DNA of 64,000 nucleotides from an uncultured Candidatus Saccharibacteria bacterium (GTDB taxonomy: Bacteria > Patescibacteriota > Doudnabacteria > UBA920), in the NCBI GenBank assembly GCA_964594755.1, contig CAZQMO010000001.1, positions 169-64,168 on the forward strand, read 5' to 3'. The position numbers and the translations under genes are program-made. This document shows, piece by piece, positions 1,646-9,333 of the stretch (position 1 is the first letter of the stretch; each line of letters opens with the position of its first letter). Below the pieces are notes generated by a model that was not told where the DNA came from, did not search any database, and saw only the letters and a program-made list of their open reading frames with translations.

Positions 1646-2125
1646 TTATTGATTGATAGGAGGGGAGCCAGCTTGGTTATTAACTGAGAGTTCAGCAAAT
1701 TTGTTTGGGTTAGCTATTACTTCGTGAACTTTCTTTAAGATTTCTTCGGTAGTGAAATATGCTTTAACCATATATGCTTGAACATGCAGGGCTTTGGTTT
1801 TAAGAATATCTTTATTGCTCCAGAGGTTAGAAAGAATGATGATTGGGGTTTTAGCTATATCTGGGTCTGAGTTCCTACGAATGGTTTCTAAAACTTTAAA
1901 ACCATCAACTTCTGGTAACATCAAATCAAGTAAAACCAAACTTGGTTTGGTTTCAATAATTAGGTCAATGCCGGCTTTGCCGTCCTCAGCCTCTTTTACA
2001 ATGTAACCACTGTTTGAGAGTTTGTGGGTGACAATTTCCCGCATCGCCACATCATCTTCCACGATCACAATTGTCTTTTTGTTATCTTCTGGCGGCATGT
2101 GTTTAGTGGGTATATTATACCACAA
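1646..2125 (-). CDS. response regulator receiver-domain protein (no recognisable DNA-binding output domain)
   Basis: IVIVEDD...LLDLMLPEVDGFKVL...TPIIILS is a CheY-like receiver with its conserved Asp residues, followed by about 40 extra C-terminal residues. Confidence 0.75.
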   Translation of the reverse strand: MWYNIPTKHMPPEDNKKTIVIVEDDVAMREIVTHKLSNSGYIVKEAEDGKAGIDLIIETKPSLVLLDLMLPEVDGFKVLETIRRNSDPDIAKTPIIILSNLWSNKDILKTKALHVQAYMVKAYFTTEEILKKVHEVIANPNKFAELSVNNQAGSPPINQ

Positions 2126-2159
2126 AAATCAAGTTGACTAATAATGAAAAAATAAATAG

Positions 2160-2558
2160 ATGAAGAAAGTTCAGCATTTTGGAGAGCACTTAACTATTGA
2201 TGGCTACGGAGGCCAATATAATAAACTTAATGATAAAAAAATCGTTGAGAAGGTGTTAATTGAACTACCCAGCCTGTTAGGCATGAACCGCTTGACTGAA
2301 CCAAATGTGATTTTGGCACCAGAAAATGATTTAAAGGACCCAGGTGGTTGGAGCGGTTTTGTTATAATCGCTGAGAGTCATATAAGTCTTCATACTTTTC
2401 CGAAAAGGGGATTTATTAGTGCAGATGTCTATACTTGTCAGAATGGTTTGGAACAAGAAAAGATTAAGCAATATTTTATTGATATGTTTGATTTAAAGGA
2501 TTTAGAAGTTAACTTTGTGATTAGGGGTACAAAATACCCTGACCATAATTTGGTATAA
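2160..2558 (+). CDS. speH: S-adenosylmethionine decarboxylase proenzyme family (class 1b, SpeH-like pyruvoyl enzyme); substrate uncertain
   Basis: 132 aa. AESHISLHTFPKRGFISADVYTC matches the ESH(I/L)S(I/L)HT(W/F)PE self-cleavage motif of small AdoMetDC proenzymes. Confidence 0.75.
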   Translation: MKKVQHFGEHLTIDGYGGQYNKLNDKKIVEKVLIELPSLLGMNRLTEPNVILAPENDLKDPGGWSGFVIIAESHISLHTFPKRGFISADVYTCQNGLEQEKIKQYFIDMFDLKDLEVNFVIRGTKYPDHNLV

Positions 2559-2581
2559 TTTTTATAGTAATTAATTTTAGA

Positions 2582-3265
2582 GTGAACATGGCTAGCAAAA
2601 CAGTAGGCAAGTATTCGAAAAAAGTAAAAGATAAGTATTTAAAAACTGTCCTAGATTTCAACCAAAAAGAATTGGTTATGCATTTTAAAAAAGGAAAGAA
2701 AGAGCTTGTCAATCAGATTATGCAGGATTGGGAAAAGCCCTACATGAAAGAGTTGGCTTCTATCGCAACTTCAAAAGGCGGAACTGTTTTAGAGGTTGGA
2801 TTTGGAATGGGGATTTCAGCTGGGTTTATTCAAAAAGTGAAAAAAATGAAATCGCACGTAGTTGTTGAATGCCATCCATTAGTAATAGCTTCAGCGAAGA
2901 AAAAATTTCCCGCAGCAATAAAAAGTGAAAGGTTAAAAATTTTAAAGGGTTTTTGGGAAGACGTTACGAAAAATATTCCAGATAAAAGTTTTGATGGCAT
3001 TCTTTTTGATTCATGTCCGCTGGATAAGGAAGTAGAATTCTTTCAATTTTTTCCATTCTTTAAGGAAGCTTATAGGTTATTGAAAGACGATGGGATATTC
3101 ACCTATTTTTCGGATGAACCTAAAACAATCTCTGTTGAGCATAGGGCGTTATTGAAGAAGGCTGGGTTTAAAGATATAAAGTATAAAGTTTGTGCAGTCA
3201 ACCCTCCTAAAGATTGTATTTACTGGAAGCATAAAACGATTGTTGCACCAATAGTGAGAAAATAA
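2582..3265 (+). CDS. SAM-dependent methyltransferase of the guanidinoacetate N-methyltransferase (GAMT/RMT2) family
   Basis: GGTVLEVGFGMGISAGF, LKGFWEDV, FDGILFDSCPLDKE, GIFTYFSDE and NPPKDCIYWKHKTIVAPIV align along the whole length with GAMT motifs as recalled. The first codon may be GTG at 2582, or the ATG at 2588. Confidence 0.6.
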   Translation: MNMASKTVGKYSKKVKDKYLKTVLDFNQKELVMHFKKGKKELVNQIMQDWEKPYMKELASIATSKGGTVLEVGFGMGISAGFIQKVKKMKSHVVVECHPLVIASAKKKFPAAIKSERLKILKGFWEDVTKNIPDKSFDGILFDSCPLDKEVEFFQFFPFFKEAYRLLKDDGIFTYFSDEPKTISVEHRALLKKAGFKDIKYKVCAVNPPKDCIYWKHKTIVAPIVRK

Positions 3266-3371
3266 TTTTTAACCAACCTTTTTGAAGTTGTTTTCAAACT
3301 ATACGGAGACTAATGTAAAATTGCACAAATGAAATTTTTATGATATTTATTAAGTTGTAAGTATGTAAATT

Positions 3372-4199
3372 ATGAAAGAATATTTTTTGGAACAATTTAG
3401 GGAAAGTAAAGGGTTTATGGTTGCAACCATCATCTTTATTGCATTAAGTGCTTGGTGGGTGTCAATCTATCTTCGTTTTCTGACTGAAGGGCTAGAGAAT
3501 GATCTGTTTACAAATCTTTTGATATTATTTCCCTTATTTGGTGGTGTCGCTGGATTGTATTACGCCAAACTTTGGGGAGGTCTCAAAAGCAGATTTGGGA
3601 TGGCTATTTTTACTTTATCTTCAGGACTGTTGGCACAGTTCATTGGTACTATCTTATATAATTATTATATTTATATTTTAGGTGTCGAAGTTCCATACCC
3701 ATCAATAGGGGATGTGTTCTTTTACATAAGTGTTTTGGCATATATCGTGGGATCATATCAGCTTGCTAGAGTCCTCGGTGTGCAATTTAGCTCCCAATCA
3801 TTTACTAATAAATTAGTTGGGATATTTATCCCACTAGTTGCATTGTTGGGTTCATATTTAATTCTCTTACGTGAATATGATTTTACTACCAGTACTCCTC
3901 TGTTAATTTTTTTGGATTTTGGATGGCAAATCGGTCAAGTAATTTACATCTCTATAGCTCTTTTTGCCTTATTTATCTCGAAGAACACTTTGGGTGGTTT
4001 AATGAGAAAACCGATTATTTTATTGATCGCAGCGCTTACAGTACAGTTTATATCAGATTTTCAGTTCTCTTACCAAGTAAATAATGATACTTGGTATGTT
4101 GGTGGTTTCAATGATTATGTTTTCATGCTTTCTTTGTATTTAATGACCTTAGCGATATTCTCAATTGGCAATATCTATTACAAGATTCAAAAATCTTAA
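3372..4199 (+). CDS. polytopic integral membrane protein, unknown function
   Basis: 275 aa with roughly 8 hydrophobic helices and no recognisable motif. Confidence 0.6.
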   Translation: MKEYFLEQFRESKGFMVATIIFIALSAWWVSIYLRFLTEGLENDLFTNLLILFPLFGGVAGLYYAKLWGGLKSRFGMAIFTLSSGLLAQFIGTILYNYYIYILGVEVPYPSIGDVFFYISVLAYIVGSYQLARVLGVQFSSQSFTNKLVGIFIPLVALLGSYLILLREYDFTTSTPLLIFLDFGWQIGQVIYISIALFALFISKNTLGGLMRKPIILLIAALTVQFISDFQFSYQVNNDTWYVGGFNDYVFMLSLYLMTLAIFSIGNIYYKIQKS

Positions 4200-4203
4200 A
4201 TAT

Positions 4204-4509
4204 ATGACAACTACTACTCAAGACGAATTAGCTGTATTCACTCAAATATCTTTGAGGATAATCAAAGAGCAGGAGCTTGTTATTGGTCCAGTTGCTTGGC
4301 AAGAAGCTAAGAAGGTTGTTGGGTTCAATATTTCTGATGCTAATAATGAGCAAGTTACCTTCGAAGGTGACCCGAAAGAAGTTCTAAACCGATTAGTTGA
4401 ACAGTATTCTCGTCTTTTCGGACAGGTTTCTAGGGAAGTATGTAAAGATGCAGTTCAAGATTTATTAGCTGAACTTCCATCAAACGATATTCCATCAAAT
4501 TTACGATAG
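4204..4509 (+). CDS. hypothetical protein
   Basis: The ORF starts at a Met just after the upstream stop. It is acidic and soluble, with no motif. Confidence 0.4.
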   Translation: MTTTTQDELAVFTQISLRIIKEQELVIGPVAWQEAKKVVGFNISDANNEQVTFEGDPKEVLNRLVEQYSRLFGQVSREVCKDAVQDLLAELPSNDIPSNLR

Positions 4510-4525
4510 TCTAAAAAAATAAAAA

Positions 4526-5911
4526 ATGTCTACCAAAGCTGCAAGTGAACCAAATTTGCAGCAGTTGAATGAGCAAATCTATAAGCATAGCTTAGAACTT
4601 GCCGTAATCAATAAAACTCTTTCACTGCTTCGTAAGCTGTATCAGATAAGCTTACTTACTTTAGACCCGGATAAACTTTCCGAAAAGATTTCGGACACAG
4701 TCCGGGTTGATTTAAATATGGAGGTGGTTGGGATATTCATTGTGCTTGGTGAGACTAAACAGATTTCACCACAACCTTTTTCAATGTCGGATCGTTTTGC
4801 TGATGTTGTTAAAGCAGAAGGAATAGCCTGGGCTGAAGCAGAATCTTTTGATGCTTCAAAGAATGTGGTGTTAAATAAAGTAATAACTAATAAAGAATGG
4901 CATACTACTAAGAGTTTTCAGGATGTGTTTGGTGAATGGGTTGATCCAGCCAAGCTAAAAAAAATAGATGTCGAAGGCCATATTGACACTGTTCTAATTT
5001 ATCCTCTTGTAACTCAGGATGAGCTCATTGGTATTTTAATGTTAGGTTTAAACCGAGGCTATGATACTCTAAGTGATTTCGAGCAAGAAGCAATAAGTAG
5101 TCTGGCCAATGTAGTAGCCGTTGCTTTGGATAAAGCTTTAGTTTATGAGAAATTGAAAATTGCAAATGAGCAACTCAAAGCTCTCGATAAGGCTCGAGCT
5201 GAGTTCATTTCCATTGCCAGTCACCAGCTGCGCACTCCTCCTGCGACCATTAAATGGTATCTTAATGCCGTACTCAATGGTGACTTTGGTAAATTATCCG
5301 ATGAGTTATATGCTGCCCTCGAGCGTACTAATGTGACTAACGAGGCGCAAATTTCGACCATTGATGATTTACTAAACGCCTCTCGTATTGAACGGGGAAA
5401 GCTGGAGTTCTTCTTTCAACCTGCAAATATGGCACCAATGGTTTCCCAGTTAGTTGAGCAGCTACAACCTTTAGTAAAAATGCATAAGCAAAACATAGTC
5501 TACAAAGGTCCGACCGAAAAAATTCCAGACATTGTGATGGACGGAGAAAAGATCCGTCAAGTGCTCAACAATATGATTGATAACGCCATCAAATATTCAA
5601 AACAGGGGGATATTGTTGTTAAGCTTGAACATGATCAGGACAACATCACTGTAAAAGTTGTTGATACAGGTAAGGGTATGGATAAAGAAACCCAAGAAGC
5701 CTTATTTAAAAAATATTCCAGAGGTAAGGATAGTGCGACTCATGCCACAGGATTGGGCCTGGGTATGTACGTTGCTAAGGTCATTGTAGAGCAACACAAT
5801 GGCCGTATATGGGCGGAAAGCCCTGGGGTAGGTAAAGGGTCTACTTTTGCATTTTCTCTGCCAATTAAGAGCAAAATTGAAGCTACAGTGGTTGATCTTG
5901 CCCAAGAATAG
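4526..5911 (+). CDS. cytoplasmic sensor histidine kinase (GAF-like N-terminus, HisKA, HATPase_c)
   Basis: H-box SIASHQLRTP. N-box QVLNNMIDNAIKYS. G-boxes DTGKGM and GLGLGM. No TM segment. Confidence 0.85.
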   Translation: MSTKAASEPNLQQLNEQIYKHSLELAVINKTLSLLRKLYQISLLTLDPDKLSEKISDTVRVDLNMEVVGIFIVLGETKQISPQPFSMSDRFADVVKAEGIAWAEAESFDASKNVVLNKVITNKEWHTTKSFQDVFGEWVDPAKLKKIDVEGHIDTVLIYPLVTQDELIGILMLGLNRGYDTLSDFEQEAISSLANVVAVALDKALVYEKLKIANEQLKALDKARAEFISIASHQLRTPPATIKWYLNAVLNGDFGKLSDELYAALERTNVTNEAQISTIDDLLNASRIERGKLEFFFQPANMAPMVSQLVEQLQPLVKMHKQNIVYKGPTEKIPDIVMDGEKIRQVLNNMIDNAIKYSKQGDIVVKLEHDQDNITVKVVDTGKGMDKETQEALFKKYSRGKDSATHATGLGLGMYVAKVIVEQHNGRIWAESPGVGKGSTFAFSLPIKSKIEATVVDLAQE

Positions 5912-8436: not shown

Positions 8437-9333
8437 CTAGAATAGATTTAGATAGATAATCCCAAAAAGTATAATTACGGTACCGATTAGTTTTTGAGTA
8501 ATTTCTTGCTTGGTAACTTTTTCAGAAATAATTTGGGGGAACAAGAAAGTAAAGAATAACCCTAGTACTAGTACATAGAATGGCTGTACTCCACCAATAA
8601 CAGCAATTAAGCTTGCGCTTGGAGCTATTAATAGTGCGTATTGAAATAGTAGATGACCAGATAGATCAACGACATCATTGAGGAGGAAGAACTTCATTTT
8701 TTTCAAACTGGTTTCCTTAATTCCTGAGAGAATCTCTTTTCGCCATTTTGGGACAATTAAGAGAGATACTCCAGATAGAGCGAACCCAATTTCCGTATAA
8801 ATAAAAGCATCTGTAAAAGTTAGGTATTGGAGCGAGTTATGAAAAAATAGAGTATAGAAGCTCAACAGTATGATTGCAGGAATCATCCATAATGCACCTT
8901 TTCGATATTTATAAACACTTAACGATAATTTGACTTGAGATAATATTAAGGCACCGATAAATACGATCGCAAACGAAATATATTGGTGCGTGGTTATGCT
9001 ATCTCCAAACAATGGACCTAGTAACAAAACTACAACTGAATAGGTTATGTACAGAGGAATTACATAGGACGCATCTTCTTCTTCTAACGCATATGAATAG
9101 AATAGATATGAAAATTGTAGGGAAACGCCTGCTGTAATTGCCCACAAAGCAATCATTCCAATTGTTTCCAAACCAAAGATTGGAATCGTTAGAAATATAA
9201 TCAAGAAGCTTGCTAGCGATCCTAAAAAAATAAACTCGTATGCACCTCTAGAAAGTTTGCTGAGCGCATATTTGTCGAAGATGTTTGAAGCAGCCCAAAG
9301 TAATGGTGCGAGCAAGGCTAAGGCAATCCACAT
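8437..9333 (-). CDS. EamA/DMT-family permease
   Basis: 10 predicted TM helices in two 5-TM halves. Confidence 0.6.
   Translation of the reverse strand: MWIALALLAPLLWAASNIFDKYALSKLSRGAYEFIFLGSLASFLIIFLTIPIFGLETIGMIALWAITAGVSLQFSYLFYSYALEEEDASYVIPLYITYSVVVLLLGPLFGDSITTHQYISFAIVFIGALILSQVKLSLSVYKYRKGALWMIPAIILLSFYTLFFHNSLQYLTFTDAFIYTEIGFALSGVSLLIVPKWRKEILSGIKETSLKKMKFFLLNDVVDLSGHLLFQYALLIAPSASLIAVIGGVQPFYVLVLGLFFTFLFPQIISEKVTKQEITQKLIGTVIILFGIIYLNLF

Follow-up and report, generated by a model that had tools for sequence, protein, structure and literature searches.

A predicted arginine decarboxylase paired with a GAMT-family methyltransferase in Patescibacteria, a candidate route to N-methylagmatine

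Introduction

In the classical SpeD/SpeE arrangement of spermidine synthesis a small pyruvoyl decarboxylase is followed by a class I Rossmann-fold transferase. Here we analyse a gene pair with the same outline, located in a stretch of 64,000 nucleotides (the window) from an uncultured Candidatus Saccharibacteria bacterium (Patescibacteriota, Doudnabacteria, UBA920; assembly GCA_964594755.1, contig CAZQMO010000001.1, positions 169 to 64,168). Its first gene encodes a decarboxylase of the S-adenosylmethionine decarboxylase (AdoMetDC) fold and its second a methyltransferase of the guanidinoacetate N-methyltransferase (GAMT) family, which is likewise related to spermidine synthase. The pair differs from SpeD/SpeE in that the methyltransferase lacks the GGGDGG motif and fails the aminopropyltransferase equivalog models, and the decarboxylase lacks the adenosyl-binding residues. 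In the following, DC denotes the window decarboxylase and its orthologues, and MT the window methyltransferase and its homologues. Judging from the sequences, the pair may encode a two-step small-molecule pathway from arginine through agmatine to N-methylagmatine, a proposal which we consider about evenly poised between right and wrong.

That AdoMetDC-derived enzymes can be arginine or ornithine decarboxylases is established (PMC9992855, PMC10407285), and it is equally established that agmatine has a growing part in how bacteria make polyamines (PMC13625781). The closest described counterparts of DC are the arginine decarboxylases named SpeDA (Li et al., J Biol Chem 2023, PMC10407285) and the Sulfolobus ArgDC, with which DC shares the class 1b fold, the self-processing Ser/His/Cys residues and the lack of a spermidine synthase partner; moreover, one of its orthologues is clustered with speY, the typical SpeDA context. 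DC keeps its prolines, it differs from SpeDA in having a signature of its own and in being followed by a guanidino methyltransferase rather than by an agmatinase or SpeY, and it was not among the proteins assayed in PMC10407285. The SpeY pathway (PMC13625781) uses arginine decarboxylases of several folds, including SpeDA and PvlArgDC, and a SpeY-type gene is found at one orthologous locus. The window, on the other hand, contains no SpeY, ureohydrolase or iminohydrolase, and PMC13625781 mentions no guanidino methylation.

MT has the fold of GAMT (EC 2.1.1.2; PDB 3orh, 1xcj, 1khh), N-terminal strands included, and shares with it motif I, the WE motif, the aspartate D134/D141 and the C-terminal PPxDC..W. 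While GAMT carries a 13-residue loop after a 'TY' dipeptide, MT has an invariant Ser-Asp-Glu, is partnered by arginine decarboxylases and has no amidinotransferase partner in the window. N-methylated guanidino units are also produced by the enzymes of the SznE and saskemycin systems (PMC12637814). These, however, are PRMT-like, act on arginine and belong to secondary-metabolite clusters of actinomycetes, whereas the unit described here is a minimal one of two genes with a GAMT-family enzyme in bacteria with reduced genomes. N-methylagmatine itself is a plant metabolite and a unit of saskemycin, where it is thought to arise via methylarginine made by a PRMT-like enzyme (PMC12637814).

Methyltransferases are not mentioned in this context in PMC9992855, PMC10407285 or PMC13625781, and full-text literature searches for an agmatine N-methyltransferase, for Patescibacteria homologues of GAMT and for the pathway proposed here returned no paper describing any of them. 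The novelty would lie in substrate specificity and pathway; fold and mechanism are known.

The decarboxylase

DC (2160..2558, + strand) is a 132-aa pyruvoyl proenzyme which matches Pfam AdoMet_dc (PF02675) with an E-value of 2.6e-23 (82.9 bits) and which we propose to act, like SpeDA, as an L-arginine decarboxylase. The best sequence matches in the PDB are AdoMetDCs. Its cleavage motif reads AESHIS, and Ser73, His78 and Cys93 are spaced like S63, H68 and C83 of the T. maritima enzyme, which are the self-processing serine and the catalytic histidine and cysteine (PMC10407285). Aligned to S63, the Ser73 codon (2376..2378, + strand) marks the residue from which the pyruvoyl group is predicted to form, with self-cleavage between Glu72 and Ser73. 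The catalytic Ser, His and Cys are kept in 120/120 closest relatives.

The residues which recognise the substrate of AdoMetDC tell a different story. In the human enzyme S-adenosylmethionine (SAM) is positioned by Phe7, Leu65, Glu67, Phe223 and Glu247, of which F223 stacks on the adenine and E247 is involved in SAM binding (PMC3686867). The human numbering was checked on PDB sequences (F223-N-P-C-G-Y-S229 and H243-I-T-P-E247), and both motifs align directly to F-x-P-x-G-x-S and H-x-x-P-E of the class 1b enzymes. F-x-P and P-E are present in the four bona fide or presumed AdoMetDCs that we aligned, namely SpeD of T. maritima, of B. subtilis and of a cyanophage, and the part of a validated fusion protein that corresponds to AdoMetDC (PMC10407285, Fig. 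S5). The equivalents in DC are Lys59 and Lys82. Among the 120 relatives the F223 position is occupied by K, R or N and never by an aromatic residue, and the E247 position by K, R, A, L, G or N and never by E or D. This complete replacement of the adenosyl-binding Phe and Glu argues that DC is probably something other than an AdoMetDC. An intact catalytic machinery combined with the apparent loss of adenosine recognition is the pattern that one would expect of a neofunctionalised amino-acid decarboxylase.

The DC family further has a 7-residue insertion before the F-x-P-type motif, at a place where the ornithine-decarboxylase type also has one, and a signature consisting of HLTIDGYGG, KDPGGWSG, HTFPxR and YTC(K/Q/R)NG. 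DC itself is not an ornithine decarboxylase of the SpeDC type, as it has AESH and not the Q..ETS..HF..Y signature (Fig. S5, PMC10407285); the decarboxylase homologue at one of the loci collected below (L010) is divergent and looks SpeDC-like. Two other approaches were abandoned. An E-to-D exchange at T. maritima Glu11 was dropped as a marker because the SpeD of cyanophage Syn1 has Asn at this position, and a tblastn search against phages, meant to place DC, retrieved only SpeD homologues of cyanophages and jumbo phages which are 26-36% identical and not discriminating.

No aminopropyltransferase gene adjoins the DC orthologues in the about ten contexts examined, and none was detected in the window when its open reading frames (ORFs) were searched by BLAST with E. 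coli SpeE. Likewise, a Pfam scan of the 20 window ORFs of suitable size found no aminopropyltransferase, arginase-family, agmatine deiminase or SpeY protein.

The methyltransferase

MT (2588..3265, + strand) is a 225-aa SAM-dependent N-methyltransferase of the GAMT family, for which we propose agmatine as a putative substrate of guanidino N-methylation. Its gene ends at 3265 and starts either with the ATG at 2588, as in the gene calls of public assemblies, or with a GTG at 2582. The gap to DC, for which the feature from 2559 to 2587 (+ strand) is the longer version, is accordingly 29 or 23 nt. DC and MT lie on the same strand, and a search of the + strand from 2558 to 3372 gave no terminator-like site, so that the two genes are probably co-transcribed. 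Matches to riboswitches (e.g. guanidine) or other RNA elements near the pair stayed below threshold, and none lies in its intergenic regions.

Among solved structures GAMT is the only strong match of MT. The human and rat enzymes are found with E-values of 1.7e-32 to 3.4e-31, far outside what chance would give, aligning MT 42-225 to GAMT 39-235 with ~34-40% identity across the entire catalytic core, and the precomputed Pfam family of MT is PF27704 (GuanidinoAc_N-MeTrfase). The next matches, O-methyltransferases and spermidine synthases, have E-values of 1e-3 or worse, and for spermidine synthases 0.009 or worse compared with 1e-32 for GAMT. An AlphaFold2 model computed with 28 homologues (pLDDT 89.8) gave the same ranking in Foldseek: TM 0.77-0.78 to GAMT (3orh, 1xcj) over ~224 columns, followed by spermidine synthases with TM 0.60-0.65 at 16-17% identity.

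Motif I of MT is VLEVGFGMGISAG, as in GAMT (VLEVGFGMAIAAS). Together with D141, E49 and the WE motif it is invariant in 28 diverse homologues, D141 being the equivalent of GAMT Asp134 and E49 that of GAMT Glu45. Komoto et al. 2004 reportedly described, for rat GAMT, a guanidino-binding role of Glu45 and the contacts of the guanidinoacetate carboxylate. Asp134 is the catalytic base of GAMT, which deprotonates the alkyl-substituted nitrogen of the substrate (PMC12842229).

The GGGDGG motif is absent from MT, and a Met sits where spermidine synthases have the Asp that binds decarboxylated SAM (dcSAM). With the aminopropyltransferase equivalogs of NCBIfam, MT reaches 21-37 bits where the cutoffs are 250-304 (PRK04457 36.5 vs 304; PRK00811 31.5 vs 260; TIGR00417 21.6 vs 249.55). 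A partial match to Pfam Spermine_synth (28.9 bits) is seen because the folds of GAMT and spermidine synthase are related.

These results bear on an earlier note, written from the letters of the window and its ORF translations, which had described an AdoMetDC-fold proenzyme with a self-cleavage motif at 2160 and, 24 nt downstream, a GAMT-family gene in the place of an aminopropyltransferase. Both assignments hold, the distance was essentially right and every GAMT motif that it listed is found in the alignment of MT with GAMT. The alignment was said to run from end to end; this is true at the level of the fold, but not in sequence, where the first 41 residues of MT are unaligned. The note had also named a divergent spermidine synthase as the identity that would speak against it, and the comparisons above point away from this.

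One difference between MT and GAMT concerns the loop after 'TY'. Animal GAMT has a 13-residue insertion here (CNLTSWGELMKSKY; in rat CNLTSW...), which is deleted in MT. We take the backbone amides of this insertion to be what binds the carboxylate of guanidinoacetate. In MT the sequence is FTYFSDE, again invariant in the 28 diverse homologues. With this loop deleted and an invariant Ser-Asp-Glu in its place, MT therefore looks like a guanidino N-methyltransferase whose substrate lacks a carboxylate.

MT relatives adjoining an amidinotransferase have SRV (L014, L016) or SGE (L030, L108) instead of SDE, and these presumably act on guanidino acids. There is no amidinotransferase (AGAT) partner in the window; such partners occur only with cyanobacterial, Bacteroidota and eukaryote-like relatives (L014, L016, L030, L108, L109, L114, L119). 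In the marine contigs L109, L114 and L119 single ORFs consist of an amidinotransferase fused to a GAMT domain, while in Moorena producens 3L and other cyanobacterial or Bacteroidota genomes amidinotransferase and GAMT are separate neighbours (upstream of MT in L014, L016 and L030). These fusions and neighbours suggest genuine guanidino-acid methylation, i.e. creatine-like chemistry, outside animals. At three loci of DPANN archaea (L015, L028, L037) two ORFs in succession make up the GAMT-like gene, which could be due to frameshifts, pseudogenes or assembly errors.

Conservation of the gene pair

To see in which company MT is found, 43 loci from species-representative genomes and 80 from metagenomes were collected, giving 104 distinct MT loci (labelled by L-numbers, with the window as L001). 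Of these, 57 are of the 'CPR type', which comprises Patescibacteria, DPANN archaea and a few others. A pyruvoyl decarboxylase is encoded within 3.5 kb of MT at 12 of the 57 CPR-type loci, and additionally at L106. For a single-copy gene in a genome of ~1 Mb we estimate a chance expectation of ~1%.

The neighbouring decarboxylases, confirmed by Pfam with E-values of 1e-23 to 5e-29, belong to two folds. An AdoMetDC-like enzyme is present at six loci: besides the window these are L003, L005/L056, L048, L084 and, with the divergent decarboxylase mentioned above, L010. The pair thus recurs elsewhere, which the earlier note had named as a check. Another six loci (L008, L009, L070, L075, L082, L099), with L026/L106 as a seventh, have PvlArgDC, by Pfam family definition a pyruvoyl L-arginine decarboxylase, which is unrelated in fold to AdoMetDC. 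At L009 and L026 the PvlArgDC gene lies directly upstream and ends 11-17 nt before the start of MT. Loci combining decarboxylase and MT span Saccharibacteria, Kerfeldbacteria, Gottesmanbacteria, Staskawiczbacteria and high-GC contigs that are not of the CPR type.

Individual loci vary in composition. The order is PvlArgDC, PRMT-like, GAMT-like at L099 and PvlArgDC, NNMT-like, GAMT-like at L070. In the Kerfeldbacteria L026/L106 (2209-3803) the GAMT-like gene downstream of PvlArgDC breaks off after about residue 166. Next come an ORF which by eye resembles a transposase of the IS200/IS605 type and, behind it, a second and non-canonical AdoMet_dc homologue with ESG and not ESH. At L003 (3000-5500) and L126 (1445-3923) genes for a LOG-like protein (LDcluster4), a GCS2-like carboxylate-amine ligase and a Peptidase_C26 of the gamma-glutamyl hydrolase type lie directly upstream of DC. 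They are absent from the window, which has a sortase, HU and a response regulator in their place.

A PRMT-like enzyme in the methyltransferase slot

The locus L126 reveals that the methyltransferase can be exchanged. Its DC orthologue (P0124) is 79% identical to the window DC and the synteny is the same, the order being Peptidase_C26, DC, methyltransferase, 275-aa membrane protein, 101-aa protein, histidine kinase and YjbQ. The methyltransferase slot (4402-5274), however, is filled by a 290-aa enzyme of another family. The 60 best PDB matches of the profile of this family are all protein arginine methyltransferases (best PRMT7, 4e-23), and both glutamates of the 'double-E loop' are invariant. 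Such a PRMT-like gene also follows DC at L134 and L138, and at L099 it lies between the PvlArgDC and the GAMT-like gene. Two arginine-decarboxylase folds and two guanidino-N-methyltransferase families therefore appear to substitute for one another at this locus.

PRMT-like proteins of this family have 280-310 aa and are widespread in Patescibacteria, where they are encoded beside arginine decarboxylases and histidine kinases (L099 3230-4228, also L136); in the source databases they are labelled 'ribosomal protein L11 methyltransferase' or 'predicted RNA methylase'. In the Magasanikbacteria locus L136 (1199-4843) an arginyl-tRNA synthetase gene is situated two genes upstream of the module of PRMT-like enzyme, membrane protein and kinase, with no decarboxylase within 4 kb. 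The proximity of the synthetase may be a coincidence.

L134 suggests a link between DC and agmatine metabolism. Here the order is DC (67% identical to that of the window), a homologue of deoxyhypusine synthase and SpeY (PF01916, E-value 4e-95), the PRMT-like enzyme and a kinase. SpeY condenses two agmatines to N1,N9-bis(guanidino)homospermidine in pathways that are strictly agmatine-dependent (PMC13625781), and clustering with speY is the context of most validated SpeDA enzymes. Such a context of agmatine-using genes (speY, speB or aguA, without speE), here with DC directly upstream of the SpeY homologue, is seen in the orthologue only; the window has MT instead.

The sensor kinase and other neighbouring genes

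The commonest neighbour of MT, which the earlier note had not mentioned, is a sensor histidine kinase. Among the 28 loci having at least 2.5 kb of downstream sequence, 13 encode such a kinase no more than 3.5 kb downstream of MT, and overall it is found near MT in 24 of 60 loci. Two arrangements are seen: either a HisKA_7TM kinase follows MT directly, or a GAF kinase comes after a 275-aa membrane protein and a protein of ~100 aa, which is the arrangement of the window. In the window these are a multi-pass membrane protein of 275 aa not assigned to a family (3372..4199, + strand), a conserved protein of 101 aa (4204..4509, + strand) and a 461-aa GAF/HisKA/HATPase sensor histidine kinase annotated by Pfam (4526..5911, + strand), genes that are kept together downstream of MT in many Patescibacteria.

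The membrane protein directly 3' of MT recurs at 18 of 60 loci and also adjoins the PRMT-like variant. It has no Pfam or PDB match. We considered whether it is a split-off sensor domain of the HisKA_7TM type, which takes its place in other lineages, and found no support for this (hhalign probability 1%, no PDB match). The 101-aa protein follows the membrane protein at 13 loci and is without a Pfam or PDB match as well. The same downstream genes accompany DC even at loci without MT (L129, L131, L132).

Other recurrent neighbours point to small molecules and their transport. An amine N-methyltransferase of the NNMT/PNMT/TEMT type lies directly beside MT at six loci (e.g. L005, L070), carriers of the EamA type and a ~200-aa membrane protein with a SWEET/PQ-loop-like N-terminus are encoded directly upstream of MT at 11 of 37 loci, and FeeM-like N-acyl amino acid synthases occur at nine MT loci. 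Searches of the window with hidden Markov models found no PvlArgDC, amidinotransferase, SpeY, NNMT-like, PRMT-like, SWEET-like or FeeM-like gene. They did find an EamA gene at 8437-9333 and a weak match of the PRMT profile (8.8e-05) on MT itself. Given these recurrent neighbours, the DC-MT pair is one configuration of a modular, conserved locus which is widespread in Patescibacteria and present in some DPANN archaea.

Upstream of DC and transcribed divergently from it is the gene of a 150-aa response regulator receiver protein (1646..2098, - strand; Pfam Response_reg), which may belong to the module. Further upstream, between 853 and 1267, lies a gap of 415 nt without an ORF. It contains a sub-threshold Rfam match to tmRNA at 938-1009 on the - strand (26.3 bits compared with a gathering score of 47, E-value 1.2e-7), and ARAGORN predicted neither tmRNA nor tRNA in the gap.

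The genes for DC, MT and the 275-aa membrane protein (2100-4500) form the stretch of lowest GC content in the 64-kb window. Sliding windows have values of 0.318-0.35 here, while the average is 0.409 (sd 0.032); values this low are seen in just 1.4% of them. The dip hints at a horizontally exchanged cassette, which would fit the swap between GAMT-like and PRMT-like enzymes in near relatives.

Proposed pathway and alternative explanations

In the pathway that we propose, DC would cleave itself at Glu72-Ser73 to form the pyruvoyl cofactor and, as an AdoMetDC-derived, SpeDA-like enzyme, would decarboxylate L-arginine to agmatine. MT would then transfer a methyl group from ordinary SAM to the guanidino group of agmatine, or of a guanidino-amine closely derived from it. 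If MT works like GAMT, the methyl group would probably go to the alkyl-substituted nitrogen, which would give N-methylagmatine. Because the partners of MT are arginine decarboxylases, its substrate is probably a guanidino-amine and not guanidinoacetate. Seen across genomes, the locus would combine a decarboxylase of either pyruvoyl fold with a guanidino methyltransferase that is GAMT-like or PRMT-like; amine N-methyltransferases, transporters of the DMT or SWEET-like type and N-acyltransferases would come and go, with a sensor kinase usually adjoining. A route to an N-methylated guanidino-amine in place of classical spermidine synthesis was already the idea of the earlier note. The comparisons lend support to it, and its arginine decarboxylase part has gained from the loss of the adenosyl residues, from PvlArgDC occupying the same place, from the PRMT-like enzyme in the slot and from the orthologue beside SpeY.

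Several observations weigh against this proposal. DC passes the NCBIfam model TIGR03330, the AdoMetDC equivalog, although by less than 1 bit (76.5 bits, cutoff 75.65). The two candidate prolines P61 and P81 are both present in DC, and the text of Li et al. (PMC10407285), which leaves the position to a figure, gives one of these prolines as conserved in true AdoMetDC and not in SpeDA. Among the loci with at least 1 kb of upstream sequence only 9-10 of 37 (~27%) have a decarboxylase nearby, so that MT must often work without an adjacent one. The FSDE sequence is also seen in MT homologues without a nearby decarboxylase and is therefore not a specific marker of agmatine use. L106 encodes a second, different AdoMet_dc in addition to PvlArgDC. 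Moreover, the tightest neighbour of MT is the histidine kinase, and both the GAMT/RMT2 and the PRMT families include protein-arginine methyltransferases.

The last point leads to the main rival explanation, according to which MT is an RMT2-like protein-arginine methyltransferase with a target in the membrane-protein/small-protein/kinase module or in a ribosomal protein, and DC supplies agmatine or a polyamine within the same regulon. Yeast RMT2, a GAMT-family enzyme, targets ribosomal protein L12, where it adds a methyl group to the delta-nitrogen of an arginine. The constancy of the kinase would be explained in this way, as would the majority of MT loci lacking a nearby decarboxylase, and the alternative occupant of the slot belongs to a family best known for protein substrates. 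However, a PRMT-like enzyme acting on free arginine is known, namely SznE of the streptozotocin cluster (PMC12637814), and among possible protein targets no candidate with a conserved arginine emerged. The small-molecule enzymes and carriers at the locus argue against protein methylation, as MT recurs beside arginine decarboxylases of two folds, NNMT/PNMT-type methyltransferases, SpeY, and EamA, SWEET-like and FeeM-like genes; we consider this explanation unlikely, though it deserves to be taken seriously. The same product could also be reached in reversed order, if MT methylated free L-arginine or a guanidino acid and the AdoMetDC-fold enzyme then decarboxylated the methylated amino acid. Gene order does not fix the order of reactions, the PRMT-like partner family is similar to enzymes whose substrate is arginine itself, and the N-methylagmatine units of saskemycin have been proposed to derive from omega-N-methylarginine via an arginine methyltransferase (PMC12637814). 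On the other side, the alternative partner PvlArgDC is known as a decarboxylase of L-arginine. MT, for its part, has lost the loop which we assume to bind the carboxylate and has an invariant Asp-Glu there, which suits an amine better than an amino acid, and we regard the reversed order as distinctly unlikely.

Even less probable in our view is that DC is a genuine AdoMetDC and that MT either transfers an aminopropyl group from dcSAM to a guanidino compound or has no functional connection with DC. The TIGR03330 score and the AdoMetDCs as best PDB sequence matches are in line with this, and so are the spermidine synthases ranking next after GAMT for the MT model and the Spermine_synth match. 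But this explanation has to cope with the replaced adenosyl-binding Phe and Glu, with a motif I identical to that of GAMT in the absence of GGGDGG, and with equivalog scores at roughly a tenth of the cutoffs or less. It would also demand that GAMT-like, PRMT-like and NNMT-like families all use dcSAM, while the non-homologous PvlArgDC takes the place of DC in other lineages and an orthologue adjoins the agmatine-dependent SpeY. That the adjacency carries no functional meaning and was merely inherited as synteny within one group of Patescibacteria we hold to be very improbable indeed. The closest examples, L003 and L126, come from near relatives and have their downstream genes in common with the window, and many MT loci are without any decarboxylase; yet decarboxylases of two unrelated folds lie within 3.5 kb of MT at 12-13 distinct and taxonomically broad loci, far from the chance expectation estimated above.

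Going beyond the arginine-agmatine-N-methylagmatine route, a broader module of Patescibacteria and some DPANN archaea can be imagined, in which two pyruvoyl folds make agmatine, GAMT-like, PRMT-like or NNMT-like enzymes N-methylate its guanidino and/or amino groups, in some lineages SpeY also dimerises it or FeeM-like enzymes N-acylate it, and SWEET-like or EamA carriers export a product that either is perceived by the adjacent 7TM or GAF kinase or controls it. In this full form the idea is speculative and rather unlikely to be correct. If it were true, ultra-small symbiotic microbes would possess a new class of signalling molecules or a polyamine surrogate that resists hydrolysis.

Implications

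If the proposed pathway is correct, polyamine biochemistry would gain a new reaction, in which a GAMT-family enzyme N-methylates the guanidino group of agmatine, and also a new clade of arginine decarboxylases that derive from AdoMetDC. Hundreds, probably thousands of Patescibacteria genes would then need relabelling, among them those now called 'S-adenosylmethionine decarboxylase', 'guanidinoacetate N-methyltransferase' or 'ribosomal protein L11 methyltransferase'. In evolutionary terms, the locus would be a clear example of how each of the two steps of a pathway can be taken over by non-orthologous enzymes. Because these ultra-small bacteria have very few biosynthetic pathways, one that is conserved and modular and consumes SAM to modify agmatine is probably important for how they function or how they interact with hosts. 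Through its constant association with a sensor kinase, it would also make signalling accessible to testing in organisms of which almost none are in culture.

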